Assembly (NCBI GenBank): GCA_030615625.1
Contig: JAUWYX010000004.1
Coordinates: 76,708-140,707, forward strand
Direction: 5' to 3'
From: Dehalococcoidia bacterium
GTDB lineage: Bacteria > Chloroflexota > Dehalococcoidia > GIF9 > AB-539-J10
Length of the DNA stretch: 64,000 nucleotides
Shown here one piece after another: positions 15,059-39,773 of the stretch (position 1 is its first letter; the number at the start of each line of letters is the position of its first letter). The notes beneath the pieces are model-generated. The model had not been told where the DNA came from and made no database searches. It saw only the letters and a program-made list of their open reading frames with translations. A program made the position numbers and the translations under genes.

Positions 15059-15092
15059 TATTTCTCAAGATTTAATCGCTGTTTAGAACGCT

Positions 15093-20896: not shown

Positions 20897-21241
20897 ATGG
20901 CAGCAGAAGGAAAAGGAAAGAGAAAGAGTAGTCCACGGGGTTTCTATAGCCGGGCCTTGGATGAGGCAGAAAAGCTCGAACTGGAGGAAGCTTCTCATGT
21001 CGAAGGAATCGACGAGGAGATTGCCCTTCGCAGAGTGAAGATCAGGGAACTTTTAGAAGAGCAGCCGGAGCGAATTGACCTGCACTTCGAGGCAGCCAAT
21101 ATCATAGCCCGGCTGGTAAGAACCCGATATCAAATTACCAAAGAGCAGAAGAAGTCCCTCAAGGAAGCCATCCAGAAAGTCTTGACCGAAGTTGCTGTGC
21201 CCCTGGGGGTTGGTATCGGAATTAAAGCAGCAAGCAAGTAA
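20897..21241 (+). CDS. hypothetical charged protein
   Basis: 114-aa Lys/Glu-rich ORF lying just upstream of a family-C palindrome. Confidence 0.35.
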   Translation: MAAEGKGKRKSSPRGFYSRALDEAEKLELEEASHVEGIDEEIALRRVKIRELLEEQPERIDLHFEAANIIARLVRTRYQITKEQKKSLKEAIQKVLTEVAVPLGVGIGIKAASK

Positions 21242-21264
21242 TCATGTTACAGCTTAAATCCTAA

Positions 21265-21400
21265 GCACCAAATTCCAAACAATGTAGAAAATCAAAAACC
21301 AAAGGTCAAAAATCAAAATGACAATTTAAAATGCAAAGATTTTTACCTTTGCTCTGTCATTTTGCACTTTTATTTTTACCTTTTGCATTTTGCAAGGATT
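21265..21400. repeat. family-C AT-rich palindromic element (upstream of terminase-like gene)
   Basis: Arms caaaaatcaaaatgacaatttaaaatgcaaag ... ctttgctctgtcattttgcacttttatttttaccttttgcattttg. Confidence 0.7.
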
Positions 21401-21433
21401 TGTTTAGAGCTTAGATATTGGGATTTTATTCTA

Positions 21434-22807
21434 ATGAAGCTAAGACCTTATCAACTGGAAGTGGCCCGGGCGGCTATGGACTCTATCCAGAAAGGAATGG
21501 GACTGAGCCTTTCTGTGGAGATTGCCAGGCAAGGAGGCAAAAACGAGCTTTCAGCGCATCTGGAAGTTCTGCTGTTAACGCTATATATGGCCAGGGGAGG
21601 CAATCTTATAAAATGCTCCCCGACCTTCAAGCCTCAAACCATTATATCTATAGAAAGGTTGAAACAGAGGCTGGATGATTTTGGGTTTGATGGCATTTAT
21701 CGTCTCCAGATGGGCTATATTGTTCAACTCGGCAACGCTAAAGCTATCTTTCTGTCGGCTGAGGGCTCGTCTTCAGTGGTGGGACACAGCGCTGACATAC
21801 TTCTGGAGATTGATGAATCGCAAGATGTTAGCAAGGAAAAGTACACCAGGGAATTCCGCCCCATGGGTTCAGCTACCAACGTGACCGCGATTCTTTATGG
21901 CACTACCTGGGACGATAGCACCTTGCTGGAAGAGGTAAAGCAGGCTAATCTGGAACTGGAAAGAAAGGACGGCATTAAGCGCCACTTTAGATATGATTGG
22001 CAGGAGGTAGGCCACTACAATCCTGACTATATCAAGTTCGTCCAGACAGAGCGGCAAAGATTGGGCGAAGAGCACCCCCTGTTCAGGACTCAATATGCTT
22101 TATTACCTATCACCCACGGCGGAGGCTTCCTATCACGGCAGCAGATAGCTCTGGTGCTGGGAGAACACCAGAGGCAATCGCAGCCTGAGGGGAAGAGGAC
22201 TTATATTGCTGGCGTAGATTTGGCCGGGGAACATGAGCAGGAAGTGACAGGAGGGGACGCTCCTTTCAGTGGTAGGGGAAGAGGGCGTGATTCCACAGTA
22301 ATCACCATTGCCGAGGTGGATGCCACTAACCCATCGCAGCCAGTGTTAAAAGTTGTGGAACAATACCAGTGGACAGGAATGCCCCATAGCCAGCTTTATA
22401 CCCAGATGACGGATATCCTTAAGAATGTCTGGAACTGCCACAGGATAGTGGTGGACTCCACCGGCATTGGTCAGCCTGTAGCTAGCTTTCTCAGAAAGGA
22501 ACTGGGAAACAGGGTCATCCCATTCGTCATTACCTCAAAAAGCAAATCCGGCATGGGCTTTGAGCTATTGTCCTTTGTCAATTCCGGGAGGCTTAAACTC
22601 TACAAGCAGGATGGCTCCAGGGAGTATAAAGAGACCTTGTTTGAGCTGGAAAGAGCCAGGGCGCAATATCGCCCGAACCAAACGATGAACTTTTATGTTG
22701 ACCCTCAAGAGGGACATGATGATTTTCTCGTGAGCCTGGCTCTGGTGGTCCAGGCCGCTAAGGGTCTTAGCCCCAGGGAAGCAAAGGGTTGGCTCAGGGA
22801 AAGCTAG
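21434..22807 (+). CDS. phage terminase large subunit-like protein
   Basis: Walker A-like ARQGGKNE and Walker B ILLEIDE, followed by an RNaseH-like nuclease triad (IAGVDLAGE, VVDSTG, GHDDFLVSLALV). The ORF extends to 21362; the start is taken at MKLRPYQ. Confidence 0.6.
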   Translation: MKLRPYQLEVARAAMDSIQKGMGLSLSVEIARQGGKNELSAHLEVLLLTLYMARGGNLIKCSPTFKPQTIISIERLKQRLDDFGFDGIYRLQMGYIVQLGNAKAIFLSAEGSSSVVGHSADILLEIDESQDVSKEKYTREFRPMGSATNVTAILYGTTWDDSTLLEEVKQANLELERKDGIKRHFRYDWQEVGHYNPDYIKFVQTERQRLGEEHPLFRTQYALLPITHGGGFLSRQQIALVLGEHQRQSQPEGKRTYIAGVDLAGEHEQEVTGGDAPFSGRGRGRDSTVITIAEVDATNPSQPVLKVVEQYQWTGMPHSQLYTQMTDILKNVWNCHRIVVDSTGIGQPVASFLRKELGNRVIPFVITSKSKSGMGFELLSFVNSGRLKLYKQDGSREYKETLFELERARAQYRPNQTMNFYVDPQEGHDDFLVSLALVVQAAKGLSPREAKGWLRES

Positions 22808-22816
22808 GCAGGCCCC

Positions 22817-22975
22817 GAAATGCAAAAAGTAAAAATAAAAGTGCAAAATGACAGAGCAACGGTAAATAAAAAATTAAAATGCCCCGATTTAATCTAACAA
22901 AGATGCAAGTAAAAGTATAAGTATTTTTAGATTTTGCATTTTAATTTGTCATTTTGATTTTTGCCATTTAATTTT
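22817..22975. repeat. family-C AT-rich palindromic element (between convergent terminase-like and tubulin-like genes)
   Basis: Arms gaaatgcaaaaagtaaaaataaaagtgcaaaatgacagagcaa ... ttttgcattttaatttgtcattttgatttttgcc. Confidence 0.75.
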
Positions 22976-23008
22976 TAAGTTTCTGTATTGTTTGGGCTTG
23001 TCCCGACT

Positions 23009-24187
23009 TCATTCCAATGTAGGCAAGTCTTTGCTTAGCTCAGCCAGGGATGCAATCCTCTTCTTAGTTTGCTCTAGCTGTCCCTTATGTTCTTTGGCAT
23101 ACTGCGTAGCTTGCTCGTAAAAGTCTTTTATCCTGGGCACAAAGGATAACTGGGATAATATCAAGGTAACGTCGATAAAGTGCCTTTCTCCGGGAAAATC
23201 GCCACCTCGAATCAGGGCGTTGGATGCCAGCTCTTTGATATAATCGCTGATGCTCTTGACCATGTCCATATTCAGATCTCTTTCCGGGCCAGATATGATA
23301 TATATAGCTTTGCCGGCATCCTTAGGGTCACAAGTGAGGGAAAGGTCAGAGATGGTGGCGTCCAAGGCTTGTGTCCCTCTGAAGCTTTCCAGAGCTTTGT
23401 CGCGGAAAGTCTTCTTCCTTATCTCCCAGGGGAAGCGGAATGAGGGAAGCTCAGTTCTCCCCAGGCCAATGGTGGTCCACCCCTCCAGGCTGGCAATTAT
23501 GTCCCCGGCGTCTATCGTCCGCGAACCCACATATTTGGCCTTGGTTACCTCACCGGCACACATTAAATCATAGAAGGGCTCGGCAATCATCCTGTTTATT
23601 CTATCTATGTTACTAACGAGACTGGCATCCTTTCTTACATACCTCTGGTTATCAGCGAGAAAAATGGCATCCACTACATCATAAGTGGATTTCAGACAAG
23701 TAGCGGTGTTATATGTACTCCTGGACTCTGTGGTCTGTTCGTGCTCAAAAGGCAAAATTACCAGGGCATAAACCGGCTTGCTGATGTATCTATCCTTAAC
23801 TGCCCGGGCTATTATGGGCAGCGCTCCCGACCCAGTGCCGCCGGCAGCGCCAGCGATAAGAAAAAAGGCATGTGTCTCGTAAAACTGGGGGGTAGCTTTC
23901 ACGGCATCCAGTACCTTATCACTGTCCTCCTTGGCCAATTGAGCTCCTAGCTCGTTTATCTTGCCTACCCCGTGTCCCAGGGTCTGGCGCAAGCCCAGGA
24001 GCACCCGGTGCGTGTAGTCGTCCTTGATAAACCTTAGGCCGGTCAAATCTGCCTGGTCTGTATTCACGGCAATGACTGTGGGGGCTATGGTGGCCTTGCG
24101 TTGACCACGCGCCTTGAAATTTAGCCTGGCAAAGTGGTCAGCAATCCGGCAGCCACACTGCCCCAGTCCAATAACTGTTAACTTCAT
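23009..24187 (-). CDS. tubulin/FtsZ-family GTPase (tubulin-like signature)
   Basis: N-terminal VIGLGQCGCRIAD and a T4-loop AGAAGGTGSG; 392 aa. Confidence 0.55.
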   Translation of the reverse strand: MKLTVIGLGQCGCRIADHFARLNFKARGQRKATIAPTVIAVNTDQADLTGLRFIKDDYTHRVLLGLRQTLGHGVGKINELGAQLAKEDSDKVLDAVKATPQFYETHAFFLIAGAAGGTGSGALPIIARAVKDRYISKPVYALVILPFEHEQTTESRSTYNTATCLKSTYDVVDAIFLADNQRYVRKDASLVSNIDRINRMIAEPFYDLMCAGEVTKAKYVGSRTIDAGDIIASLEGWTTIGLGRTELPSFRFPWEIRKKTFRDKALESFRGTQALDATISDLSLTCDPKDAGKAIYIISGPERDLNMDMVKSISDYIKELASNALIRGGDFPGERHFIDVTLILSQLSFVPRIKDFYEQATQYAKEHKGQLEQTKKRIASLAELSKDLPTLE

Positions 24188-24316
24188 TTTTCCCTCCTTC
24201 TTTCTTTACCGTTGTTTCCTCTTTTCTTATTTGTCACTGCGAGGCTGTTTAATTTCGTCTAGCTTTGGAACCAGATTTGTTTTGGCTTTCCGGGAAATTC
24301 TTCACCTCCAGATTTT

Positions 24317-24367
24317 GTAGTGCGACCCTTCAGGGTCGTGCAGCACGAGGCCAAAGCTTCGCACTAC
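24317..24367. repeat. REP palindromic element (family A)
   Basis: gtagtgcgacccttcagggtcgtgc...cacgaggc.aaagc.tcgcactac, with terminal inverted repeat gtagtgcga/tcgcactac. Confidence 0.8.
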
Positions 24368-24408
24368 GTTTTTAAACATTCATTCGCTACCTTTATTCCC
24401 CTTCCTCC

Positions 24409-26004
24409 TTAGTAATAATATATTCTTCTCCTTATTACGAAAAAGTAAACCGCGGCACCGATGCCCGCCGCTATTGCGACTATGATAACAATGAATGCCC
24501 ACAGGGGCAAGCGTCCAGCCCGGAAGGAGTAGACCGCGGACCAGTCGCTTTCATTCTCTGCGCCATCTACGGCTTGCACAATCCAGTAGTAGGTGCCATA
24601 AGGCAACGCTTCTGCCTTCTCCAGCGTGTAGTTCGTTCCGACTATGTTTGGAATTGAAACTATTGGGTCAGCGAATTCTCCAGTGGCGGTGACATTGGCA
24701 CTGGCTGCTATTTGCAGGCTATAGCGAACTCCGCTGTCATCGGATACCGCCGTCCATTCAAACGTCGGCCTCACCTTGCCTGTGAACCCCATCCTGTCCC
24801 CATCGGGTGGGGAAATGAGTTCTGGTGTGCCCGGAGGGTCTGATTCCATGGTGAAGATAGCGATGGCCTCGTTCTCGGCGGCATCCTCGGCTGTTACTTG
24901 GGGCGCGCCATGTTGACTCTCAGGCACGAGAAAACTTACCTCAAAGCTGCCTTTGTCGTTGGTCCTGGCTGTCGCTACCTGGCTGCCATCGTACATTATG
25001 TCCACATCTTTGTTGGTGGGAAATCCGCCGCCCGTGACGGTCAAGTTCATGCCCACGTGTCCTTCGTCGGGGGACAGCACTATGCCAGGCTCTATCTCGA
25101 AGCTGAGCTCGTTGATGTCTTCTTTGTCGGTCCGTTCTCCCTCGGCGGTGACGCTATACTCGCCTTTGGGCATCTCAGGCACCTCGAAGTTTTCCTCCCA
25201 GTAACCCGTGTCGTCGGCCCTGATGATTTCCGTGTCTGTTTCCACTGCCTCTCCAGCAAATAATATTGTAATGTCCCTCTCGTTAGCAGCAAATCCGCTG
25301 CCCGTCATCGTTATGCTCTCACCCGGGCTGCCCAATGGCTCATCTACGACGCTACCCGATGGTCCATCCAGAATGTTTATCCCCGGCGTCACTTCGAAGG
25401 TGGCATCCTCGACCTTAGCGAAGCTGCTATCATCACCCTGGGCGTCTATCTTATGGTTTCCCTTGGTGGAAGGGGGAATCTGGAAACTCACCTCCCAACT
25501 GCCATCCTCGTCCGCTTCGATATTCTCTGCTACCGTCTCATCGTCGCCATTGAGATAATACCTCAGCTCGATATCTTCCTCATCCTCGGCAAACCCCCGG
25601 CCTTCCACGGTAACCGTGGTGCCCACAGGGCCCTCTTCAGGGTCTACTATTAAACCCGGCTTCACGGTAAAGTAAGCAGAAGCAGTGATGTAATGCACGT
25701 CCCTGGCGCGCACCTCGTGGTCTCCGCTGCAACTTTCGGGAACTTCGAAAGTGACCTTGAAATATCCGTCTTCATCGGTCTCGACATCTTCTATCCATTC
25801 TCCAGTACCGTTCGGATAATAGTAAATATCAACCCACTCATCAGCTGTAAAATTATAGCCACGGACGGTAACTTCCTCCCCGGGAACTCCCCAGGTGGGG
25901 GAGAGCGTGATATATGTGCCATTGGCTTGCGCGGGCGCAGCCGGAAGGGCAATGGCTATAAGGCAGACGGCGAAAACAACCAACAATCGAGGTAGCAAGT
26001 GCAT
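24409..26004 (-). CDS. surface protein with repeated Ig-like/FN3-like domains and C-terminal TM anchor
   Basis: Signal peptide, internally repeated roughly 90-aa acidic modules, C-terminal YYWIVQAVDGAENESDWS then a TM helix and a basic tail. Paralogue of the 26068-27624 gene. Confidence 0.6.
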   Translation of the reverse strand: MHLLPRLLVVFAVCLIAIALPAAPAQANGTYITLSPTWGVPGEEVTVRGYNFTADEWVDIYYYPNGTGEWIEDVETDEDGYFKVTFEVPESCSGDHEVRARDVHYITASAYFTVKPGLIVDPEEGPVGTTVTVEGRGFAEDEEDIELRYYLNGDDETVAENIEADEDGSWEVSFQIPPSTKGNHKIDAQGDDSSFAKVEDATFEVTPGINILDGPSGSVVDEPLGSPGESITMTGSGFAANERDITILFAGEAVETDTEIIRADDTGYWEENFEVPEMPKGEYSVTAEGERTDKEDINELSFEIEPGIVLSPDEGHVGMNLTVTGGGFPTNKDVDIMYDGSQVATARTNDKGSFEVSFLVPESQHGAPQVTAEDAAENEAIAIFTMESDPPGTPELISPPDGDRMGFTGKVRPTFEWTAVSDDSGVRYSLQIAASANVTATGEFADPIVSIPNIVGTNYTLEKAEALPYGTYYWIVQAVDGAENESDWSAVYSFRAGRLPLWAFIVIIVAIAAGIGAAVYFFVIRRRIYYY

Positions 26005-26067
26005 TTGACCAACCTCCTTTTTGCTATTATAAACGAAAATGCCACTAAAAAGTAAGTACCTTATTGG

Positions 26068-27624: not shown

Positions 27625-27659
27625 TTGACTAATCTCTCGCTATTATAACCGAAAATGCC

Positions 27660-27850: not shown

Positions 27851-27893
27851 GGGTTTGTTCAGGATCGGGGCTTGCCCCCGACCATTCACCACC

Positions 27894-27930: not shown

Positions 27931-28082
27931 GTAGTGCGACCCTTCAGGGTCGTGCCGCCCTTTGCACGAGGCTAAAGCCTCGCACTACAGTTTTATGCCT
28001 TTGCACTGGATTTTGTAGTGCGACCCTTCAGGGTCGTGCCGGCCCTTGCACGAGGCTAAAGCCTCGCACTACAGGCTGTAAA
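27931..28082. repeat. two REP elements (family A) abutting the RAYT 3' end
   Basis: Copies at 27931-27988 and 28015-28082. Confidence 0.8.
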
Positions 28083-28551
28083 TGGTTTCTAATTCAAATG
28101 AGCCTGAATAGGGATAGCTGCTACAATCCTCTACCATCCCCTTCCTGACAGGGTTTTGGATTATATATCGGGCTACAGCCCTGGTGGCTTCATCGTTTCT
28201 CAACACATGTTCGTAATAATTTGCCCCCCATAACTGCACACCATAAATGCCTTTGAACCAATAAGCAGTTTTCTGTTTGAACAAGGTGACAAAGTCCTTC
28301 ATATCTGCATTGCTATTCTTTCCTTCTATTAGCAGATGCACGTGATCGGGCATAAAGCAGTATGCCCAGACTAAGAAACTTTCCTGCTCACACGTACTCT
28401 TTAGAATCTCGATTACTTTGGCGACGACTTCATCATTCACGAAATGATGTTTAAAACCTTGTGAGCGTATAGTGATGAAATATCGATAATAACCGCGATA
28501 AGAAAAGCTCTTAAGTCTCCTTGGTTTTTCGTGTTCTCTGCTTGGCATCAC
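28069..28551 (-). mobile_element. REP-associated tyrosine transposase (RAYT, IS200/IS605 TnpA-like)
   Basis: 160 aa with an HuH motif (HVHLLIE) and a catalytic-Tyr region (YIIQNPV). Flanked on both sides by REP palindromes. Confidence 0.75.
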
Positions 28552-28585
28552 TGATATTGATCGATAAATTGTAACATAACCGTGT

Positions 28586-29089: not shown

Positions 29090-32000
29090 TTATACTCGAC
29101 GAGTCCTGAAGATGAGCACTATTACTACAATCACCAGGGCAGCGCCGATGCCGATGACTACCCATACCCAGTACGGAGTTACCGGCTGGGCTGGGTGCGC
29201 CTCAGCAGTGTGCGCTTCGAGTTCCGCCTGAGTGTCGAAGCACAGACCGTCCTGTGGACAACAGAACGCACCCGTTGGTGCTGTGGTGAAGCTGCCTACG
29301 GCGCTCATGCTTATGACAGCGCCCTCACTGTAGGCGGTCACCTGCCAGTAGTAGGTGGTGCCGTAGTCCAGCGTTCCGGTGTACGTGGTGGCTGTGTTCC
29401 TCAGCCCCTCTTCTTTTTGGACGGGACTGGACAGGTCAGCGTTCTTGGACAGCACCCAGTCGAACTCATCAGCTTCCGCCAGCAAGTCCCAACTGAAGCC
29501 CACGTTCTTTGTACCCACACCCATGGCTCCCGGTTCAGGAGCGACAAGCGTTATTTGTGCGGCTTCTATGCTGGGGGGAACAGTGAAGCTCTCACCCACG
29601 GTCCACCAGCTGTGGATTACCTGACCGGTGGCGGCTTCAGAAGCCCTTACCCTCCAGTAGTAGGTCTGTTCACAGGAAAGTCCTCCAGCTAGTCCTCCCA
29701 TGACGGAGTAACTCGGGATGTCTCCTGTAATGCCACTTATTATGTAGTCCGTCGCGGGATCGCCTTCCGCATTTACCTGCACCGGCATGGTGAATTCCTC
29801 GTCCAGTGCGAACTGTATCTCATACACGCAAGCATCGCACAGGCCGTCCCAGGTCAGGGTAAATGGCGCGCTGTAACATGAACAGGGGTCGGCTTTGACT
29901 TCAGGGGTTTCAGTATCGGGAGCCTTCTTGGCATAGCAGTCCTCAAAGGTCCAGACGCTGCCGGCTTCGTTGTCTACGAAGTCATAGTCATGGCGGTCAA
30001 TGGCAAAGAGCTTGGTGTTGCTGTCTGCCGTCAGGCAGCCGCAAATCTTCAGTGCGTCGGGCCACGCTTCGAAGCTCTCTACATCAACGGTTAGTCCCAT
30101 CCACAGGAAGTCCCAGGTGAGACAGGTCACGCATACTGTAACCTCACGCTCGAGAGAGCGGGCTACGCCGGTGAACATAGTCATCTCGTAGTCGCCCCAA
30201 TAGCTGGCGTAGATAACGCCGCCGTTCTCAGCGTCGGTGTAGGGATTGCCCGGTCTATCCACGACCAGTCCGGTGAAGTTCACCTCTACGGGCTCATCAT
30301 CGTCCGTGTCTGCGTCGTAAATACCGATCTGCCACTCTCGAGGCTCGGCTTTGAGGTCCATCCAATCTGTGCTTTCGCCAATGACCCACTTATAAATACC
30401 GTTCTCAGTTCCGGGGGCTTCGGCTAAGGCAGCGTAGATTACATCGTTGGCGTCGAAGTAGGTGTCGAAGGCCACTGTAACGTAGCCACCGGTGGTGACA
30501 TCCTCCAACGCGGTGAATGTTTCACCGCCATCGTCGGAGTAGGCAACATCTCCATCATTGCCGCCGACCAGTACGTAGTCGCCCCAAACGGCGATGGTAT
30601 AACCATCAGCGACCTCGCTGTCGACTGATTCATGCCAGCCGATAGCATAGTCATCGGACATGGCAACATCGCCACCGTTATCCAGGGCAAAGATGGTCTC
30701 CTTGTCCAGCACTGCCAGGTCTACGATATTGTCTACAGAGGCACTTCCAAAGTCCCAGCAAGCCAGGCCTTCCAGCTCATTCCAGTAGACGTTATCGGTA
30801 TAGTAGTCAAAGAGATAGACGGTATCGCCGGTCGTTTCCTCGGGATTTAGCCTGAGTATGCCGGCTTCTAAAGTGCCATCCCCCCACGCGGCGCCCTCGA
30901 GCGAGCCGTGCCAGACGCGAAGCCAGTGTTCGCTGTATTCGCTGTATCCAAATTCGGGAAGGTCATCGCCGTACAGCCAGACGCTGTCGCAGCCGCAACC
31001 CCTCCCATCATCGTTAACACTGACCACCCAGGTCTTGTTGCAGTCGGGCGACACGGCGACATCGGAGAAGTAGTTAATATTGGTGTCAATCAAACTGAGC
31101 TGGTTCCAGACATCTCCGTCGTCGAAGCTTACCGACCAGGCGCCCTCGTCATATAATTGCCCCCCCATAGGTGGACCCAGGGCAACAGCATAAGCCTTGT
31201 CGGCGCTTACGAAGAATGCCGCCATGGCAAGTCTCCCCGAGGGTGGCTTGCAGGCCTCTTCCCAGGGCAGGCAGCAGATGTCCATATTGGTGATTTGAGT
31301 GTTGCGGTAGACGTCCACGCCCTCGCAGCACGCTGCAAGCACTGGAAGTCCCATCGCCATTGTTCCGTCGCCCAGCAGGCCGGCTATAGCCTTACCTTCA
31401 GCTATGTAGCCCAGGTAATGGACGTTGGTCAGCCAGGGTGTGCCATCTATCTGCTGGTTGACTTCCATGACAGACTTGTTTTTCACACGGAATATCTTGC
31501 CCACTGCTGTGGGCCCGGCAGCAATGTAGTTCACGTTTACCCAGGCATACCTCTTATCTGAGTTCCGGCCGGAGTAGTCCAGGGGCAGTGTTATGCCCGC
31601 TGTCGCTGCGCCAAGGGTTATCCATGGGATGTTTATGCCTAAACCACTGACTACAGCCACAGCATCGATGGCCAGAATTGAGTCCAGGTTCCAGCCTTCG
31701 CTGGTTCCCCAGGTGCCGCATTGGAGGTAGAGTGTGCCAGGGGCGTCAACGGTGGCAACCAGGATGGTCTTGTCCGCAGCCCAGCTGGGGGCGAATTTGA
31801 TGTCAACAACGGCTTCAGAGATGAAGGCAGGCCCAGCAGGCGGGTACTCCTCATCCCAGCCTGAATAGTCCGTAGTATCTGTGGCATCTTCCCAGTTACT
31901 GGCCGAAGCTCCGGTAGCCGTGGAGCGCCAGAGCTCGGCGGTACCCCCATCGGTGCCGCCGATAGCCATGTCACGCTTGCCAGCCACTTCTGGGGAGACT

Positions 32001-32536
32001 TCGAGTTCATAGACCCAAGCGGGGTTCATGAACGCCGTCATAAAGGCACCGGTGTCCTCGAAGTTGTCCCCACCGTCATCGGAGATAAACACATGCACGG
32101 TGGTCCCAGGTATATCGAGGGCAACAGCCACGAAGTCGGCGTCCACGCCATCCGTGGCCACTTTCAGCAATGTTAAACCGGTCACGCCGGCCTCGTCCTC
32201 TATTGCATCGGTGATGTCCTTCCAGGTGGCGGCGCCGTCATCTGACTTCAACAGACAGAATCCTTCAAGTGAGAGGTCTCCGTCCATATCAAAATCGCTA
32301 TCGACGATAGCGTAGGCCACGTCTCCGCCGTCAGCCACGGCAAAATCGACGATTGTGGAGTTGGGTGCCATGAGCCAGTCGTCTATGGTGGGAGTAGTGA
32401 CCCGCGTCCAGTCGCTGAGACCGGGGTCGGCACTCACCTTGTGGGCTGGTATCGCTACAATTATCAAACTTATGGCCAGTGCCGCAGCGATGAATAAATA
32501 CATCGCCTTGGCTGGCCACGCTCTTGCTTTAATCAT
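29090..32536 (-). CDS. large secreted surface protein (beta-propeller/BNR-like repeats, two FN3-like modules, C-terminal TM anchor)
   Basis: 1148 aa with a signal peptide and Trp/Gly/Asp-rich repeats. YYWRV/YYWQV FN3-like modules resemble the C-termini of the 24409 and 26068 proteins. Ends in a TM helix plus RTRRV. Confidence 0.6.
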   Translation of the reverse strand: MIKARAWPAKAMYLFIAAALAISLIIVAIPAHKVSADPGLSDWTRVTTPTIDDWLMAPNSTIVDFAVADGGDVAYAIVDSDFDMDGDLSLEGFCLLKSDDGAATWKDITDAIEDEAGVTGLTLLKVATDGVDADFVAVALDIPGTTVHVFISDDGGDNFEDTGAFMTAFMNPAWVYELEVSPEVAGKRDMAIGGTDGGTAELWRSTATGASASNWEDATDTTDYSGWDEEYPPAGPAFISEAVVDIKFAPSWAADKTILVATVDAPGTLYLQCGTWGTSEGWNLDSILAIDAVAVVSGLGINIPWITLGAATAGITLPLDYSGRNSDKRYAWVNVNYIAAGPTAVGKIFRVKNKSVMEVNQQIDGTPWLTNVHYLGYIAEGKAIAGLLGDGTMAMGLPVLAACCEGVDVYRNTQITNMDICCLPWEEACKPPSGRLAMAAFFVSADKAYAVALGPPMGGQLYDEGAWSVSFDDGDVWNQLSLIDTNINYFSDVAVSPDCNKTWVVSVNDDGRGCGCDSVWLYGDDLPEFGYSEYSEHWLRVWHGSLEGAAWGDGTLEAGILRLNPEETTGDTVYLFDYYTDNVYWNELEGLACWDFGSASVDNIVDLAVLDKETIFALDNGGDVAMSDDYAIGWHESVDSEVADGYTIAVWGDYVLVGGNDGDVAYSDDGGETFTALEDVTTGGYVTVAFDTYFDANDVIYAALAEAPGTENGIYKWVIGESTDWMDLKAEPREWQIGIYDADTDDDEPVEVNFTGLVVDRPGNPYTDAENGGVIYASYWGDYEMTMFTGVARSLEREVTVCVTCLTWDFLWMGLTVDVESFEAWPDALKICGCLTADSNTKLFAIDRHDYDFVDNEAGSVWTFEDCYAKKAPDTETPEVKADPCSCYSAPFTLTWDGLCDACVYEIQFALDEEFTMPVQVNAEGDPATDYIISGITGDIPSYSVMGGLAGGLSCEQTYYWRVRASEAATGQVIHSWWTVGESFTVPPSIEAAQITLVAPEPGAMGVGTKNVGFSWDLLAEADEFDWVLSKNADLSSPVQKEEGLRNTATTYTGTLDYGTTYYWQVTAYSEGAVISMSAVGSFTTAPTGAFCCPQDGLCFDTQAELEAHTAEAHPAQPVTPYWVWVVIGIGAALVIVVIVLIFRTRRV

Positions 32537-33459: not shown

Positions 33460-33831
33460 GTGCTAATTTATACTCAACATGGAAGAAAGATTCGGCGAAG
33501 CCGAATGGGTAATGAGGAACGGAATATGGAAAGTAAATTGATGTGGGATTTATTGCCCGAGGAATTCCACTACGAAGATAAGGGTTGTGAGCTCTTTTCC
33601 TCCTGTCTTAACTGCCCCTTTCCTGATTGCCTTAAAGAAGAGCCCTGGGGGAAGGAGAGGTTCTTAAAGAGCAGGCGAGCCGAGAGGATGATGGAGTTGA
33701 AACGAGAAGGGAAAAGCGTTAAGGAGATTGCCCGCATATTTGAGGTGAGCCCGAGAACGGTGCAGAGATGGCTGAAGGCGGTGGAAGAAGCCTCGCAAAA
33801 TCAAAAATCAAAATGCAAAGTACAAAAGTAA
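33460..33831 (+). CDS. small Cys-rich HTH DNA-binding protein (possible small terminase/regulator)
   Basis: CxxC...CPFPDC cluster and a C-terminal HTH (KSVKEIARIFEVSPRTVQRWLK). First gene of the phage-like module. The last roughly 13 codons derive from a family-C repeat. Confidence 0.5.
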   Translation: MLIYTQHGRKIRRSRMGNEERNMESKLMWDLLPEEFHYEDKGCELFSSCLNCPFPDCLKEEPWGKERFLKSRRAERMMELKREGKSVKEIARIFEVSPRTVQRWLKAVEEASQNQKSKCKVQK

Positions 33832-33880
33832 ATTTTTGGGTTTTGCTCTGTAATTTTGATATTTAACTTTTGATCCTTGA
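33790..33880. repeat. family-C element overlapping the 3' end of the HTH gene
   Basis: Arms caaaatcaaaaatcaaaatgcaaagtacaaaag ... gctctgtaattttgatatttaacttttgatcc. Confidence 0.6.
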
Positions 33881-35390
33881 ACTGTTTTTAGAGATGACTG
33901 ACTTTAACCCATCCCATCTGAACCGCATGGACACCCAGCGCCTCGCCGCTTACCGCTCCAACCTTGATTTCTACCAGGGCACCCACTGGCCCACGCAGTC
34001 ACGCCACCGTCAGCTTGTCTTTAACTACGCTAAGGTATCCATAGACAAGCTAACCAGCTTCCTTATGCCGGGACTCGGCTTCGCCTGTTATCCCGTAGCC
34101 GACGTTGCCAGCGATAGCGAAGCAATCGAAGCCAGAGTAAGGCGAGCCGAGCAACTCCTTCGCCAGGTATATGAGCAGAACAACCTCCAGCAGCTCGATT
34201 ACGAGACCGAGATTGACACCGCCGTCTTGGGAGACGGCTGCTACAAGGTGATGTGGGATACCGAAGAGAAGCGTATCCGTATCACCGCCCCCGATGTCTC
34301 AGGCATCTATGCCTGGTGGCTTGGAGATGACACCTCGCGGGTCTGGAGGATAGCTTCAAGATACACGCTTACCTGGGATGAAATCCAGATGCTTTACGGT
34401 GATGTCATTGCGAGCGTAGCGAAGCAATCTCAGGGGATTGCCACGTCGCCCCGATTCATCGGGGCTCCTCGCAATGACGGAGGGACGTCATTGCGAGGCA
34501 CGCCAGTGCCGAAGCAATCCCAAGGAAAGAACAGAGTCGTGGTAACCGAGCTCTGGACGGATAAGGCCTTTGACCTTTACCTGGACAACGATCTCATAGG
34601 GTCCAGACCCAATCCCTATGGCTTTATCCCCTTTATCATCTTCCCCAACATCAGGGACCCCAAGCACTTCTGGGGCGTATCGGATATCCCCAGCATCATC
34701 CAGCCCCAGCGGGAACTCAACCGGGCCTTGAGCCAGCTATCCCGCATCCTGGAGCTGTCAGGCAACCCCATCGCCGTCCTGGAGAACATCGCATCAGCTG
34801 AGGACATCAAGGTCCAGCCCGGGGCCCTGTGGACCATACCGGAGGACGCTAAGGCTTATCTTCTGGACTTACTGCAAGGCGGCGGAGTCAGACTTCATGT
34901 CGATTATATCGATTTGCTATACCGTGCCCTGCACGATGTATCGGAGATGCCCCGGGCTGCCTGGGGAGGCATCGAGAAGGAGTTCTCAGGCACCGCCCTG
35001 AGGATTGAGCTCGGCAGCCTCATTCAGAAGGTGGTGCGAAAACGCACCATCAGGACCAATGTATACCACCAGCGTAATGCCATGATATTAAAGCTGGCTG
35101 AAATGTTTATGAACGAGAACTTTGAAGGAGTGAACCATAGAGTGGTCTGGGGTCCCATCCTGCCTCAGGATATAGATAGGCAGGCCCAGACCGAGCAGCT
35201 CTTGGTCCAGGCGGGAGTCCACAGCCGGAGGACCGCTATGGACGAGATGGGTGTCCAGGACCCCGACGAGGAGTTCAACAGGTGGCTGGAGGAGAGGGAG
35301 AGGATACTACAGATGAATCAGGAGTTCAGGGCAACATCCACACGTGGCGGAGCGAGAGAGAGCGGTAGCCGCGGAGATGGAAGTGCCTGA
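33870..35390 (+). CDS. phage portal protein
   Basis: 506 aa, sized and positioned upstream of scaffold and capsid genes. Contains three in-frame family-B repeat insertions (34414-34520). Confidence 0.6.
   Translation: MILELFLEMTDFNPSHLNRMDTQRLAAYRSNLDFYQGTHWPTQSRHRQLVFNYAKVSIDKLTSFLMPGLGFACYPVADVASDSEAIEARVRRAEQLLRQVYEQNNLQQLDYETEIDTAVLGDGCYKVMWDTEEKRIRITAPDVSGIYAWWLGDDTSRVWRIASRYTLTWDEIQMLYGDVIASVAKQSQGIATSPRFIGAPRNDGGTSLRGTPVPKQSQGKNRVVVTELWTDKAFDLYLDNDLIGSRPNPYGFIPFIIFPNIRDPKHFWGVSDIPSIIQPQRELNRALSQLSRILELSGNPIAVLENIASAEDIKVQPGALWTIPEDAKAYLLDLLQGGGVRLHVDYIDLLYRALHDVSEMPRAAWGGIEKEFSGTALRIELGSLIQKVVRKRTIRTNVYHQRNAMILKLAEMFMNENFEGVNHRVVWGPILPQDIDRQAQTEQLLVQAGVHSRRTAMDEMGVQDPDEEFNRWLEERERILQMNQEFRATSTRGGARESGSRGDGSA
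34414..34520 (+). repeat. three family-B elements (forward, reverse, forward) inside the portal ORF
   Basis: Copies at 34414-34441, 34449-34478 (reverse) and 34497-34520. All are translated in-frame (VIASVAKQSQG...SPRFIGAPRND...SLRGTPVPKQSQ). Confidence 0.75.
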
Positions 35391-35409
35391 ATAATAAGCT
35401 CACCCCCTT

Positions 35410-35439
35410 GTCATTGCAAGGCGAAGCCGAAGCAATCTC
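35410..35439 (+). repeat. family-B element (intergenic)
   Basis: gtcattgcaaggcgaagccgaagcaatctc. Confidence 0.7.
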
Positions 35440-35459
35440 AAGAGGAATAGGAGAAATGT

Positions 35460-35963
35460 ATGGAAAACGAAAACGAGGAAACCCAGGAAACCCCTGCCCT
35501 GAGCGAAGTCGAAGGGACCAATGAGGTTTCCACCCCCGGGGACCTGGAGGCGATCACGGCACAGCTCGAGGAGGAAAAGAAGGCCAAGGCCGCCGCTGAG
35601 GCAGCCCTGGCCGAGAAGGATGCCCGCATCGCCGAGCTGCAAGCCGAAGGCGAAGCATTGCGAGCCGAAGGCGTGGCAATCTCTGAAGCCCACGCTCAGG
35701 CCGTCACCAAATACCTCGATGCCGTCAGGGCTGCTAATCCCACTATTCCCCGGGACATCATCGCCGGCGGCACCATCGAGGACATAGACGCCTCGGTCGA
35801 GAAGGCTCAGTCCATCGCCAGCGCTGTCAGGCAGTCCTTAGAGGCTGAGGCCAAAGAGGCTAAGGTCCCCGCGGGAGCACCAGCCAGGGGCGAGATATCC
35901 CTTGAGGGCTTAACCCCCAGGGAGAAGATCGCCGCTGGAATACAACAAGGAAGTCAAGGATAA
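35460..35963 (+). CDS. phage scaffolding-like protein
   Basis: 167-aa acidic Ala/Glu-rich coiled-coil protein between portal and capsid. Contains an in-frame family-B copy (35655-35683). Confidence 0.5.
   Translation: MENENEETQETPALSEVEGTNEVSTPGDLEAITAQLEEEKKAKAAAEAALAEKDARIAELQAEGEALRAEGVAISEAHAQAVTKYLDAVRAANPTIPRDIIAGGTIEDIDASVEKAQSIASAVRQSLEAEAKEAKVPAGAPARGEISLEGLTPREKIAAGIQQGSQG
35655..35683 (+). repeat. family-B element inside scaffold ORF
   Basis: gcattgcgagccgaaggcgtggcaatctc, translated as ALRAEGVAIS. Confidence 0.7.
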
Positions 35964-36050
35964 AAATGCAAAACGCAAAAATACAGGGCAAAAATCAAAA
36001 ATTTTTCGTTTTGCTTTGTCATTTTGGTCTTTTATCTTTGATTTTTAATT
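35957..36050. repeat. family-C element between scaffold and capsid genes
   Basis: Arms aaaatgcaaaacgcaaaaatacagggcaaaaatcaaaaat ... tttgctttgtcattttggtcttttatctttgatttttaatttt. Confidence 0.7.
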
Positions 36051-36066
36051 TTGAACAGGAGGAAAT

Positions 36067-37140
36067 ATGAGTATATCTTTAGCAGAAGCAAGTAAGCTCT
36101 CGACCGATATCCTGCTTAAAGGAATCATCGAGACCATCGTCAAGGGCAGCCCCATCTTACAGGAGCTGCCCTTCATCCAGATCGTGGGCAATAGCCTGAA
36201 GTACAACCGGGAGAAGACTTTGCCCACCGTGGCCTGGTACTCCCCGGTAACCGACACCTGGACGACCTCTGAGCCGGCTTTCGAGCAGTGCTCTGCCAGC
36301 CTCTGCGTCCTTGGCGGAGACGCCGATGTTGACAACTTCCTCAAGGCCACCAGGAGTAATATCCAGGACCTCGAGGCCGCTGTCATCGAACAGAAGGCCA
36401 AGGCCTTGAGGAACGAGTTTGAGAACACCTTCCTGAACGGCGACTCGAGTGTGGACGCCAACCAACCCGATGGTCTGTATAAGACCATGAAGGGCACAGC
36501 CTGGGAGGCCACTACTGCCTATTCCCTGGGTGACATCGTCGTCCCCACTGCTGGCAAGGAGAATGGCTTCCGTTACGAGTGCACCACCGCCGGCACTTCT
36601 GGCTCAACAGAGCCCACTTGGAAGACTACCGAGGGAGAGACCAACTCCGACGGCACCGTCGTCTGGACCTGCCGGCTCGGCAACCACCTCGGCATGGCAG
36701 CGAACGGCGCCACCCTTGCCCTCGGCAAAATCGACCAGCTCATTGACCTGGTCAGAGGGGGCAAGCCCGACCTGCTCTTAATGAGCCGCCGGTCCCGGAG
36801 GAAGATCGCAGCCTTAGCCAGAGCCGCTGGATCCAATCTTCAAGTCGGACAGGGTAAGCTCGGCGAGTTCGTCGAGCTCTATAACGGCATCCCCGTCGCC
36901 ATCTCCGACTGGGTCAAGGACAACTACACCGTGGGCACGTCCAGCGATTGTTCGGCCATGTTCGCCTTCCAGATGGGAGAGGGCGCCGTCTGCGGTCTTA
37001 CCAGCCCCGAGGTGATTCAGGTCGAGCGTCTCGGCTCCCTGGAGACCAAGGACGCTTCCCGGACCAGGGTCAAGTGGTATGTATCACTGGCAAACTTTTC
37101 CATCGTCAAGGCCGCCATGCTGACAGGAGTGAGAGACTAA
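36067..37140 (+). CDS. phage major capsid protein (HK97-fold family)
   Basis: 357 aa beginning LSTDILLKGIIETIVKGSPILQELPFIQ, typical of Phage_capsid family members. An AGGAGG RBS sits at 36057-36062. Confidence 0.7.
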   Translation: MSISLAEASKLSTDILLKGIIETIVKGSPILQELPFIQIVGNSLKYNREKTLPTVAWYSPVTDTWTTSEPAFEQCSASLCVLGGDADVDNFLKATRSNIQDLEAAVIEQKAKALRNEFENTFLNGDSSVDANQPDGLYKTMKGTAWEATTAYSLGDIVVPTAGKENGFRYECTTAGTSGSTEPTWKTTEGETNSDGTVVWTCRLGNHLGMAANGATLALGKIDQLIDLVRGGKPDLLLMSRRSRRKIAALARAAGSNLQVGQGKLGEFVELYNGIPVAISDWVKDNYTVGTSSDCSAMFAFQMGEGAVCGLTSPEVIQVERLGSLETKDASRTRVKWYVSLANFSIVKAAMLTGVRD

Positions 37141-37160
37141 TGTCCATGCCAGGCAGGAAT

Positions 37161-37199
37161 GTCATTGCGAGCCCCGATTTATCGGGGCGTGGCAATCTC
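37161..37199 (+). repeat. family-B element (intergenic, full length with inner hairpin)
   Basis: gtcattgcgagc-cccgatttatcgggg-cgtggcaatctc. Confidence 0.8.
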
Positions 37200-37233
37200 C
37201 TGGCGTGCGTTTCAACCTCCTTTGTATCGAGGC

Positions 37234-37260
37234 GGGAGGGGGAAGGTCGAGCCCCCTCCC
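37234..37260 (+). terminator. GC-rich stem-loop downstream of capsid gene
   Basis: gggaggggg-aaggtcgag-ccccctccc forms a perfect 9-bp stem, but no U-tract follows. Confidence 0.3.
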
Positions 37261-37298
37261 TACCTCAGTGCGCATCGATGCGTATTGCGAGGTGAACC

Positions 37299-37889
37299 GT
37301 GAACTTAACCGAAATGAGAGCCCGGGTCCGTGAGGACCTCCAGGACACCGACAGCCAGAACTACCGCTGGACGGACGATGAAGTAGACGGAGCCATCGAG
37401 AGGGTTGTCATGGAGTACTCCCTCCATGCCCCTATCGAGCAGCAGGATGATATAGCCACCACCGACGGAGATACTGAGCTCGATATCTCCTCCCTCACAG
37501 GCTTGCTCAAAATCGAGTCAGTCGAGTTCCCTATCGGCCAGGCTCCTAAATATCTCCAGCGGACCGAGTACTGGGCCGGCCACTTTTATATGGAGGACGA
37601 AGGTGACGGAGAAGACGCCCGTGTAAGATGGCTTAAGAAGCACACCCTGGACGCCGAGTTCACCACCATCCCCGCCGAGCACGAGGAGATTATCGTTTTG
37701 GGCGCCACTGGCTACCTGGCCATGTCGGCAGCCGCTTATACTGTGGACAGGGCCAGCATCGCCGGCCGCCACGCCACCATCAACTACAAGGCCTGGGGCA
37801 AGGAACGGCTGAGCCGCTACGACAAGAAGCTTAAGCAGATTGCCCAGGGAAACCGAGTAATCCAGAGGCAGCTCTACACCGAAGATTAA
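37299..37889 (+). CDS. phage head-tail connector-like protein
   Basis: 196 aa. The N-terminus (MNLTEMRARVREDLQDTD...DDEVDGAIERV) resembles gp6-type connector/adaptor proteins. Confidence 0.4.
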   Translation: MNLTEMRARVREDLQDTDSQNYRWTDDEVDGAIERVVMEYSLHAPIEQQDDIATTDGDTELDISSLTGLLKIESVEFPIGQAPKYLQRTEYWAGHFYMEDEGDGEDARVRWLKKHTLDAEFTTIPAEHEEIIVLGATGYLAMSAAAYTVDRASIAGRHATINYKAWGKERLSRYDKKLKQIAQGNRVIQRQLYTED

Positions 37890-37980
37890 AATGCAAAATG
37901 AAAAGAGCGAAAACACAGAGCAAAAATCAGAATCTTTACATTTTAATCTGTCATTTTGATTTTTGACTTTTGAGGTTTGA
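37890..37980. repeat. family-C element
   Basis: Arms aaaatgcaaaatgaaaagagcgaaaacacagagcaaaaatcag ... attttaatctgtcattttgatttttgacttttg. Confidence 0.7.
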
Positions 37981-37983
37981 TTT

Positions 37984-38193
37984 ATGTTGGAAGTCGGCAT
38001 CCTCAAAAACTTCGACGGGGGTACCTACAAGGCCGGCGTTCAGCTCGCAGGGTCCTTGACTACCTATTTCGACAACCTTAATGTCGCCCGGAATATTGCC
38101 TCGGCCGAGATGGTAACCGGCCGCCACGTAATCCTGGCGATCCCCGAGGGAAACCCAAGGGACGCCGTAGTCATCGCAGTATTCACCGTATAA
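37984..38193 (+). CDS. hypothetical phage-module protein
   Basis: 69-aa ORF inside the structural cluster. Confidence 0.35.
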   Translation: MLEVGILKNFDGGTYKAGVQLAGSLTTYFDNLNVARNIASAEMVTGRHVILAIPEGNPRDAVVIAVFTV

Positions 38194-38202
38194 GGAGGAA
38201 CC

Positions 38203-38547
38203 GTGCCTAAATCAAGAGTAAAGGAAGCAGTAGAAAAAGAGAAGACCAAAGAGGGACTACCCAGGGAAGCCTTCGCCATCGTCGGCGACCCCCAGGATCC
38301 TGAGACCTGGAAGCTCCCCCACCACACCAGGGCCATCATGCGCGCCCTCCAGGGAAGGCTCGATATCGAGAGGACCGTGGACTGGGACCGCATGCCTGCA
38401 GCCGTCGCCGCCCTCAGCCGGGGCGGTTACCGCGGGGAGAGGGTCCAGGCCTCAGAGGAGGACATCATCCAGGCCGCCCGGCATTTAGCCAGGCACTATG
38501 AAAAGGCTGGGAAGTCCGTCCCCGACACCCTGGGCGCCCTGATTTAA
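38203..38547 (+). CDS. hypothetical phage-module protein
   Basis: 114-aa ORF. Confidence 0.4.
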   Translation: MPKSRVKEAVEKEKTKEGLPREAFAIVGDPQDPETWKLPHHTRAIMRALQGRLDIERTVDWDRMPAAVAALSRGGYRGERVQASEEDIIQAARHLARHYEKAGKSVPDTLGALI

Positions 38548-38650
38548 CATAACCATACTCAGGAACGAAACCCATGAGTGTAATAAGTGGCAAAAGGGGA
38601 AAGAGGGGCTTTCTCGAGCCTCTCAGAGCCTGTTCAGCAAAGGAGGAAAC

Positions 38651-38884
38651 ATGCCGGAGGAACAGAACAAAGCTAGTCCCAACCTCGTGACGGTCTTTTG
38701 CGATTTTTTCCGAGCCGCCACCAGGCCTGTTGTTACCGTCATTTTCGCCGCCGTCATCGCCCAGGTCGTCATCGACAGAATCGACGCCCCCCAGTGGTTC
38801 CTGGGCCTGGCCATCCCAATAATTGGCTGGTGGTTTACCGAGCGGACGGTGCAGCACATCAAGGAGAAGAAGGAGCAAAGCTAA
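38651..38884 (+). CDS. small two-TM membrane protein (holin-like)
   Basis: 77 aa with two hydrophobic helices and a charged C-terminus. Confidence 0.35.
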   Translation: MPEEQNKASPNLVTVFCDFFRAATRPVVTVIFAAVIAQVVIDRIDAPQWFLGLAIPIIGWWFTERTVQHIKEKKEQS

Positions 38885-39135
38885 TGCCTCGAGACGAGGA
38901 CAAGGGATTCCTGAAAGGCCTTAACATTCACGGCTTCATGGACGTCTACCAAGAATGGCACGCCTTCGTCAATGGCTTTTGCGAGGTCCTTTGCCCCTGG
39001 CGGGCGAAGTATGAACCCTCCGAAGAATTACTAAATGACTTGAAGGGGGATCATCATTACTATATGTTCGGCCGAGCCATCGGCGTCATCGCCTGGCTCA
39101 TCATCGCTAAAATCATCAAGGAGGTCTTCTTTTAA
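38885..39135 (+). CDS. small membrane protein (C-terminal TM)
   Basis: ATG at 38885 abuts the stop of the previous gene. 83 aa ending GVIAWLIIAKIIKEVFF. Confidence 0.35.
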
Positions 39136-39773
39136 TGGCTAAATCAGGAATTAAGCACATAGACGTCGGCCTCGAGCTCACCAAGACGGAGTGGGAGAGC
39201 GAGGAGAGCCACGAGCTCATTCACGGCAATAGCTTCCCGTCCTCGCCCGTCGAACGTCAGCTCTTCTACCGGGACGACGAGCATAAATGGTATATCTACA
39301 ACGGTTCGGCCTGGGTTGACCTTCAGGGTACTGGCGGCGGAGTCATGGACAAGTCTTGCCGGGTTCACCATTCCACAGACCAGACACTACCAACTGGCAC
39401 CGTGGTATTCTCTGCTTTTGATACTGAGGTCTGGGACACCGACGAAATACACGACACCGTCACCAATAATAGCCGGCTAACCTGCAAGACAGCAGGCAAG
39501 TATATGATTGCTGGCGGCGGTCAGTTTGTTGCCAACGCCACAGGAAGACGGCATGCTCAAATCAAGCTGAATGGGACTACGGTCATAGCTGGACAGCACT
39601 TTCAGGCGGTGACTGATAGCGGTGGTGTTACCAGCCTTACAATAGGTACCATTTATAGCTTGGCTGTGAACGACTATGTGGAGCTAGGATTTTATCAAGC
39701 ATCTGGAGGAGACTTGGATTTGCAGGGTGGGCAGATATACTCCCCCTGGTTTAGTATGGCAAGGATAGCATGA
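39135..39773 (+). CDS. phage fibre/receptor-binding-like structural protein
   Basis: 212-aa Gly/Thr-rich beta-type sequence (GGGQFVANATG...). Its start overlaps the stop of the previous gene. Confidence 0.35.
   Translation: MAKSGIKHIDVGLELTKTEWESEESHELIHGNSFPSSPVERQLFYRDDEHKWYIYNGSAWVDLQGTGGGVMDKSCRVHHSTDQTLPTGTVVFSAFDTEVWDTDEIHDTVTNNSRLTCKTAGKYMIAGGGQFVANATGRRHAQIKLNGTTVIAGQHFQAVTDSGGVTSLTIGTIYSLAVNDYVELGFYQASGGDLDLQGGQIYSPWFSMARIA

Follow-up and report, generated by a model that had tools for sequence, protein, structure and literature searches.

A CetZ-family GTPase of uncultured Dehalococcoidales is encoded beside surface-protein genes and between the halves of a split phage head module

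Does a tubulin-like GTPase that is encoded next to a phage terminase gene serve a mobile element or the bacterium that carries it? This question is raised by a locus on contig JAUWYX010000004.1 of a Dehalococcoidia bacterium assembly (GCA_030615625.1), of which we analyzed a stretch of 64,000 nucleotides (positions 76,708 to 140,707). We call this whole stretch the window, and all coordinates refer to it. Analysis of the open reading frames (ORFs) of the window places the GTPase gene at 23009..24187 on the minus strand, with an ATG start and a predicted product of 392 amino acids (aa). An earlier note, made from the sequence alone, had reported this ORF with its GQCG and GGTGSG motifs, and both motifs are real and lie where it had placed them (GLGQCG at residues 7-12 and AGGTGSG at residues 115-121). 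The note preferred a TubZ/PhuZ-like mobile-element protein or a novel family, and it named CetZ among the candidates. CetZ proteins are cytoskeletal and best known from archaea, where they control whether cells with an S-layer in place of a wall become rods or discs, and the Dehalococcoidales include the disc-shaped dechlorinator Dehalococcoides. We conclude that the window protein is nearly certainly a genuine member of the CetZ family, within the tubulin/FtsZ superfamily. We also propose, with a probability of about 0.6, that it is a host-encoded protein forming CetZ-type, GTP-dependent filaments at the envelope of wall-less, S-layered cells and shaping them, besides FtsZ/FtsA.

The assignment to CetZ is made because the protein passes the threshold of the CetZ_C profile and because its top matches in both sequence and fold are the three solved CetZ proteins. 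In Pfam, the Tubulin domain (PF00091) matched the window protein with E=2.6e-32 and 113 bits against a 33-bit cut-off. CetZ_C (PF21011) matched with E=8.1e-20 and 71.4 bits against a 21.6-bit cut-off, spanning residues 189-361 of the protein and positions 3-179 of the 180 in the profile. Tubulin_2 (PF13809), a family of TubZ-like and FtsZ-like proteins, stayed under its 27-bit cut-off (21.1 bits, 2e-4). The FtsZ equivalog of NCBIfam (TIGR00065) reached 63 bits against a cut-off of 295.2 bits and covered the N-terminal domain only, and Pfam gave no match of the window protein to the FtsZ_C domain. A phmmer search of the PDB sequences returned as its top three Haloferax volcanii CetZ1 (4b46, 2.8e-47, full length), CetZ2 (4b45, 5.7e-30) and Methanosaeta thermophila CetZ (3zid, 3e-19). 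FtsZ proteins started at 5e-10, and the best tubulin was gamma-tubulin with a partial alignment at 1.9e-5. By BLASTP, the window protein is 33% identical to CetZ1 across 376 alignment columns. The earlier note was thus right to see a tubulin/FtsZ-superfamily GTPase with a tubulin-type T4 loop (serine, not threonine) and to count CetZ among the candidates. A novel family is not supported, given the CetZ_C match and the three CetZ proteins as the nearest solved structures.

The predicted structure points to the same family. An AlphaFold2 model made from an 18-sequence alignment (pLDDT 88.7, pTM 0.87) shows two domains folded as in FtsZ/CetZ, with a C-terminal helix of 35 residues after them. When this model was compared with the PDB using Foldseek, ranks 1-4 were all CetZ, namely CetZ1 (E=1.5e-32), CetZ2 and M. 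thermophila CetZ, with target-normalized template-modeling (TM) scores of 0.93, 0.89 and 0.80-0.82, respectively. After these came a long run of FtsZ structures (target-normalized TM 0.72-0.84). TubZ (2xka) held rank 50 with a TM of 0.65 and 17% identity, and no tubulin was found among the top 50 PDB matches. Among predicted viral structures the top matches were phage FtsZ-like proteins, and PhuZ was matched with E=5.9e-10, TM 0.51-0.57 and 13% identity. Fold and profiles are therefore those of CetZ and not of an unrelated P-loop or Rossmann family, an outcome for which the earlier note had allowed.

With the Haloferax CetZ1 and CetZ2 and the Methanosaeta CetZ, the window protein shares the pairing of a Tubulin GTPase domain with a CetZ_C domain, the GGTGSG of the T4 loop, acidic T7 residues at the positions of D215 and E218, a long C-terminal helix and a short hydrophobic terminal motif. 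The T7 loop (TIDAGDI) and the C-terminal tail (KDLPTLE, after the helix) were both features that the earlier note had suggested looking for. In the alignment, D226 and D229 of the window protein pair with D215 and E218 of CetZ1, of which E218 is the catalytic acid. A DNQ motif containing N180 is assigned to T6 by its position. The window protein differs from Haloferax CetZ1 in its bacterial host and in sequence (identity of about 31-33%). Its T1 loop reads GQCG, as in tubulin, rather than the GQAG of the solved CetZ proteins, and its T4 loop begins AGG where theirs begin GGG, with alanine in place of the first glycine of the tubulin signature GGGTGSG. FtsZ has in common with the window protein the superfamily fold, the logic of GTP-dependent filaments and a C-terminal peptide of the D-I/L-P-x-L type after a linker. 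The FtsZ signature, however, is GGGTGTG, with threonine where the window protein has S120, and FtsZ is encoded in the ftsA-ftsZ cluster, whereas the window gene lies outside it in a host order in which FtsZ is already present. Tubulins of the eukaryotic type, BtubAB and artubulin carry a Tubulin_C domain, to which Pfam gave no match in the window protein.

We conclude that the GTPase belongs to a bacterial host, an uncultured member of the Dehalococcoidales (Chloroflexota), because the same window contains prfB and because relatives of the protein occur in Dehalococcoidales genomes. The prfB gene (10749-11847), encoding release factor 2 (RF2), scored 455 bits with TIGR00020 against a 370-bit cut-off and contains the classical +1 programmed frameshift site CTT TGA C at 10812-10818. 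A bacterial-type solute-binding protein is also encoded in the window. A protein search returned more than 5,400 relatives of the GTPase, the top 120 of which are 87-97% identical to it, with those that are named labelled Dehalococcoidia bacterium. When GTDB was scanned with one genome per species and a six-sequence alignment as the query, relatives were found in at least 429 species genomes. The best 80 of these (93% to 53% identity) are nearly all labelled as metagenome-assembled genomes (MAGs) of Dehalococcoidales, Dehalococcoidia or Chloroflexota, a phylogenetic distribution that the earlier note had proposed to check. They include a closed 1.12 Mb chromosome, which carries relatives of a clade about 55% identical to the window protein that is described below, and four genomes with odd bin labels. 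This gene order is found again in dozens of independent MAGs of the Dehalococcoidales, on contigs as long as 668 kb. In a library of 50%-identity representatives the whole close clade forms one representative, and the next full-length relatives, one of them from Dehalococcoidia, are 36-45% identical. The named cluster members of these nearest relatives outside the clade are few and come only from Dehalococcoidia and Nitrososphaerales, and no archaeal donor lineage was identified from them. The most likely origin of the family, we infer, is acquisition from archaea at an early stage of Dehalococcoidales evolution.

The existence of this clade is already known from the literature and from database annotation, in which relatives are called 'tubulin/FtsZ family protein' (NCBI) or 'tubulin-like protein CetZ' (JGI). 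Santana-Molina et al. 2023 (PMC9871819) described CetZ-like 'sparse paraphyletic groups' in Chloroflexota-Dehalococcoidia with C-termini that match the CetZ_C hidden Markov model at about 1e-10, and these proteins are the same as, or close relatives of, the window protein. That study is without synteny, paralogy, tail-motif or functional analysis, and a family present in at least 429 GTDB species genomes is not sparse. To this we add how broad the clade is and how its paralogues are organized, together with a tail motif, a linkage to surface-protein genes and a split phage module.

We counted residue conservation among 100 Dehalococcoidales sequences from the fetched loci. The nucleotide-binding residues G7, G9, Q10, C11 and G12, the stretch G71-H-G-V-G75, G116-G121 and N180 are kept in 99-100 of them. 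Of the T7-loop residues, 99 sequences keep D226, and all 100 keep G228 and D229. Mutation of the equivalent acid, E218 of CetZ1, blocks GTPase-dependent turnover and rod formation in Haloferax (bioRxiv 10.1101/2024.04.08.588506). A neighbor-joining tree of the retrieved loci, with only two Haloferax references, resolved three clades. These are clade A, which contains the window protein and spans 57-100% identity, and two sister clades, each about 50-56% identical to the window protein. Copies from the sister clades occur as pairs within a genome, in tandem in two loci (L078, at 6001-8385, and L070) and 3-4 kb apart in 13 others (within L051-L083), and extra copies of 37-40% identity are found occasionally. 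The T7 acids are intact in both members of each pair, and therefore neither looks catalytically dead. The GTPase gene is vertically inherited, with paralogue expansions.

The surroundings of the gene were compared by searching the window's neighboring proteins against the fetched genome loci with tblastn, taking L001-L050, L056 and L075 as the clade-A loci. A gene for a TIG/Ig-domain surface protein lies directly upstream of the CetZ gene on the same strand, at a distance of 37-514 bp, in 41 of the 46 clade-A loci that could be assessed. Farther upstream in the window are a paralogous TIG gene and a gene for a surface protein of 1148 aa. Orthologues of the latter often lie upstream of the TIG genes in other loci too (L004, L006, L009-L012, L018, L026, L153 and L155-L157). 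The surface proteins carry signal peptides and end in a transmembrane helix with a short, basic and aromatic cytoplasmic tail. On the other side of the CetZ locus, PHO4, PhoU, AMMECR1 and a radical-SAM gene are conserved. The gene for the large subunit of a phage terminase (TerL) between CetZ and PHO4 is present in 24 of 47 clade-A loci and absent from the other 23. The GTPase gene is thus linked to genes for membrane-anchored surface proteins and not to the terminase. A mobile-element role is contradicted by this synteny, in which 41 of 46 loci keep the upstream TIG gene and only 24 of 47 have TerL. The cluster of surface-protein genes (24409-32536, with TIG/Ig, PKD, CARDB and BNR-like domains, and seen also in L152/L154) varies in content between close relatives. 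It may be an S-layer or cell-surface gene island of wall-less bacteria.

These features are consistent with a cytoskeletal role at the envelope. The Dehalococcoidales and SAR202 have lost the division and cell wall (dcw) and peptidoglycan genes, have kept mraZ-mraW-ftsA-ftsZ and have S-layers (PMC10608941, PMC11994032). In the mechanism that we propose, the GTPase would polymerize head to tail on GTP, like CetZ1/CetZ2 and FtsZ, with the T7 loop of one subunit completing the GTPase site of the next, which would make the filaments dynamic. The filaments would lie under the cytoplasmic membrane, where the terminal motif might dock them to a partner or anchor, and they would help to set cell shape or envelope organization, with FtsZ/FtsA kept for division. 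By analogy with the archaeal proteins, we would give a cell-shape role of the window protein, taken by itself, roughly even odds. That hundreds of their genomes carry a conserved CetZ-type GTPase, often in duplicate, suggests that in bacteria, too, an envelope of archaeal type goes together with a shape cytoskeleton of that type. If true, this would likely be a case of inter-domain transfer with a testable phenotype.

Several points weigh against a shape-determining filament at the envelope. Polymerization, localization and a shape role would all be carried over by analogy. The long hydrophobic M-loop (tip LLSRL) that marks the CetZ1 subfamily is absent from the window protein, whose M-loop is about 10 residues shorter than that of CetZ1, although its tip in clade A (FRFPW..RKK) is hydrophobic and basic. 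The window protein is therefore a member of the CetZ family and not a CetZ1 orthologue. The copies of the ~55% clade adjoin housekeeping genes and a gene for a repetitive, coiled-coil-like protein rather than TIG genes, the neighbors being gap, eno, dnaX, recR, a protein of about 175 aa and a highly repetitive Ala/Glu-rich protein of 570-704 aa that resembles a coiled coil. Because these neighbors are not TIG genes, the link to the envelope is clade-specific. In the window, 221 bp with a REP hairpin separate the CetZ gene from the TIG gene, which bears on whether the two are co-transcribed, and a promoter and terminator scan around the CetZ gene gave counts near the shuffle expectation and no convincing sites. 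Lastly, the tail motif, D[IL]PxL[L], looks like that of FtsZ, which would agree with a role in division.

This tail motif is conserved. The pattern [KR][DEG][LI]P[STNKL]L is found at the C-terminus or no more than 3 residues from it in 97 of 99 readable Dehalococcoidales copies from the loci, after a charged helix of variable sequence, with KDLPTLE, KELPSLG, RELPLL and KDIPSLL as examples. It is also found in several more distant relatives. The usual ending of archaeal sequences of the GQAG type is ...[DE]x[LF] (IDSLL or LEPLF, for example), and the [DE][LI]PxL tail is a variant of this archaeal ...L[FL] ending. Rod development requires the tail of CetZ1, LESLF. In the tail of Escherichia coli FtsZ, DYLDIPAFLRKQAD, residues I374 and L378 bind FtsA, ZipA and MinC, and the Dehalococcoidales tail, D[IL]PxL[L], is nearer to the DIPAFL of FtsZ than to the LESLF of CetZ1.

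A division-associated role via this FtsZ-like tail is the main rival to the envelope filament. The window protein would then be a second division protein, forming a filament like that of an FtsZ paralogue and joining the FtsZ/FtsA ring, as archaeal FtsZ2 does, with the C-terminal peptide docked to FtsA or SepF. The K-D-[IL]-P-[ST]-L-L tail of most Dehalococcoidales copies resembles that of E. coli FtsZ and would point to such docking, and the host order has kept FtsA and FtsZ. In Dehalococcoides mccartyi BTF08, a 'FtsZ/tubulin GTPase' (btf_0551) and FtsZ were both less abundant in co-cultures, where cells changed from disc to barrel (PMC8163811), so that a tubulin-like protein and FtsZ change in abundance together. 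The protein btf_0551 is a second tubulin-superfamily protein of cultured Dehalococcoidales that was detected at the protein level, and the authors of that work discuss it as a division protein. We take it as a lead only, a possible orthologue of the window protein. On the other side, sequence and fold are those of CetZ and not FtsZ, as the TIGR00065 score and the lack of an FtsZ_C match indicate. The gene lies outside the mraZ-mraW-ftsA-ftsZ cluster and no division gene lies near it, the motif of the window clade ends in LE and not LL, and Haloferax CetZ1 is reported to be necessary for rod development. CetZs are also not known to be needed for division, which counts against this alternative. 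We regard a second division protein as unlikely, yet as the best of the alternatives to an envelope filament.

The terminase gene that led the earlier note to a mobile element is a true TerL gene and does adjoin the GTPase gene, but it is not isolated. It lies at 21434..22807 on the plus strand, with its true ATG at 21434, is convergent to the CetZ gene with 201 bp between them and encodes a full-length protein that is 30% identical over 96% of its length to the terminase of Bacillus phage vB_BboS-125. It is preceded by a 114-aa gene (p114), which is kept alone in two loci (L011 and L045). The genes for the head, from portal to a protein called p694, follow at 33460-41854. Across species, TerL identity (65-93%) roughly follows CetZ identity. 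We found relatives of TerL with 54-73% identity on 67 IMG/VR contigs (L084-L150). In nearly all of these, p114, TerL, in some cases a helix-turn-helix (HTH) gene, portal, scaffold, capsid and adaptor genes through p694 are contiguous on one strand, and a tyrosine integrase and small genes precede the module in at least two (L088 and L092). Small temperate phages have such a contiguous arrangement. In the window, 11 kb of genes on the opposite strand interrupt the module between TerL and the HTH-portal block, namely CetZ, two TIG genes, the 1148-aa gene and the REP-associated tyrosine transposase (RAYT) with its REP arrays. The contigs of L004/L155 and of L152/L154 show this split as well, the gap in the latter being about 27 kb with further surface-protein genes, and L156 and L157 repeat the layout on the portal side. 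On the far side, all of these loci keep the host genes for Lactamase_B, a 224-aa protein and an A24 peptidase. The split module may be a decaying prophage or a retained element like a gene transfer agent (GTA).

This arrangement allows the reading that CetZ is functionally tied to the phage head module that brackets it, in the assembly, positioning or release of a phage- or GTA-like particle, or that it is cargo of that element. In a fuller form, CetZ and the variable surface-gene block would have been captured between the packaging and head halves of a vertically inherited, phage-derived particle module and become coupled to it, so that either the filament would organize the assembly, positioning or release of particles like those of a GTA at the envelope or the surface-gene island would be diversified or mobilized by the module. 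Such a coupling would give phage PhuZ systems a counterpart on a bacterial chromosome, and phage tubulins such as PhuZ are a precedent for it. CetZ and the surface block lie exactly between TerL and the portal block in the window, L004/L155 and L152/L154, with the layout of L156 and L157 in agreement on the portal side, and at deep nodes of clade A (L046, L047 and L049) TerL is only 13-52 bp from CetZ. However, tblastn found a GTPase relative on none of the 67 IMG/VR contigs, CetZ occurs without TerL in 23 of 47 clade-A genomes, CetZ pairs lie in housekeeping contexts in the ~55% clade, the phage collection contains no relatives (tblastn against 50,697 phage records) and the CetZ gene is on the strand opposite to the module. 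Both forms of this reading therefore seem to us very doubtful. No defense system was matched when the GTPase, TerL, p114 and the surface proteins were scanned with PADLOC.

Still less probable, and in fact contradicted, is a TubZ/PhuZ-type protein for the segregation or positioning of the DNA of a plasmid, phage or other mobile element, which the earlier note had favored. The adjoining TerL gene, the repeats on both sides and the weak Tubulin_2 match (2e-4) would speak for it, and TubZ of plasmids and PhuZ of phages belong to the same superfamily. That match is under threshold (21 versus 27 bits), though, and the likeness to TubZ and PhuZ is far lower than to CetZ in both fold and sequence (TM 0.51-0.65, 13-17% identity). 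Matches in the plasmid collection are only to CetZ paralogues of haloarchaeal megaplasmids, at about 30-33% identity, and a scan of IMG/VR for the GTPase found none, using two N-terminal peptide patterns only and thus not exhaustive. The window gene is chromosomal, is conserved in hundreds of Dehalococcoidales species with stable host synteny, and has neither an adjacent TubR-like gene nor a centromere repeat. The repeats that the earlier note had taken for those of a mobile element are real, but they belong to genome-wide, dispersed intergenic REP and AT-rich families, and neither kind bounds an element carrying the GTPase gene. We correct the mobile-element reading because the gene is chromosomal and conserved and because the neighboring terminase, which is part of a split phage module, is present in about half of the loci only. 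Finally, the idea that an archaeal gene lies on a mis-binned or chimeric contig, so that there would be no bacterial CetZ, could draw on the description of CetZ as an archaeal family and on an A/V-type ATPase operon in the window, and we give it practically no weight and reject archaeal contamination because it is contradicted by the bacterial RF2 gene with its frameshift site on the same contig, by a gene order shared among independent MAGs and by the relatives on a closed chromosome.

Table 1. Features of the CetZ locus and of its surroundings in the window.
Feature	Position	Strand	Basis
CetZ-family tubulin/FtsZ-superfamily GTPase gene, 392 aa	23009..24187	-	ORF, Pfam, PDB, AlphaFold2/Foldseek
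T1 loop GLGQCG, residues 7-12, nucleotide binding	24152..24169	-	translation, conservation
T4 signature AGGTGSG, residues 115-121	23825..23845	-	translation, alignment with CetZ1 GGGTGSG
T7 loop TIDAGDI, residues 224-230	23498..23518	-	alignments with CetZ1, conservation
M-loop equivalent ELPSFRFPWEIRKKTFR, residues 246-262, hydrophobic and basic tip	23402..23452	-	pLDDT 55-73, conservation, CetZ1 comparison
Long C-terminal helix (DSSP, residues 351-385), then terminal motif KDLPTLE	23012..23137	-	
REP-type palindrome pair in the TIG-CetZ intergenic region	24311..24370	.	repeat families D4 and D5; same family as the RAYT array
TIG/Ig-domain surface protein, 531 aa; signal peptide, C-terminal transmembrane helix, tail RRRIYYY	24409..26004	-	Pfam TIG 9e-17
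Paralogous TIG/Ig-domain surface protein, 518 aa	26068..27624	-	Pfam TIG 2.6e-20; 73-85% DNA identity to the neighboring TIG gene
REP-associated tyrosine transposase (RAYT)	28069..28551	-	NCBIfam REP_Tyr_transpos, 93.2 bits against an 80-bit cut-off
Large surface protein, 1148 aa; signal peptide, C-terminal transmembrane helix, weak BNR/Ig matches	29090..32536	-	
114-aa gene and terminase large subunit (TerL), packaging half of the split phage head module	20897..22807	+	Terminase_6C, PHROG TerL
HTH protein, portal, scaffold-like, major capsid, adaptor and structural proteins through p694, head half of the module	33460..41854	+	SPP1_portal 3.5e-20; PHROG major head 7e-59, portal 1e-29

Some further observations concern the other genes and the repeats of the window. 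The A/V-type ATPase operon of this bacterial genome is at 668-9517, and its subunits include A, B, C/AC39 and I. For prfB, the ORF finder gives only the downstream part of 312 aa. The RAYT gene is flanked by REP arrays at 27925-28075 and 28581-28988, in which palindrome pairs are spaced about 85 bp apart, and a solitary REP pair lies just upstream of the CetZ gene. An AT-rich intergenic repeat with AAAATGCAAAA-like units forms an imperfect inverted pair around TerL (21275-21390 and 22818-22995). We considered these inverted copies as the ends of an element and rejected this, the repeat being dispersed, with further copies in the window at about 14940-15060, 37885-37972 and 45004-45107 and others in related genomes. 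The AT-rich repeat could be regulatory or resemble a miniature inverted-repeat transposable element.

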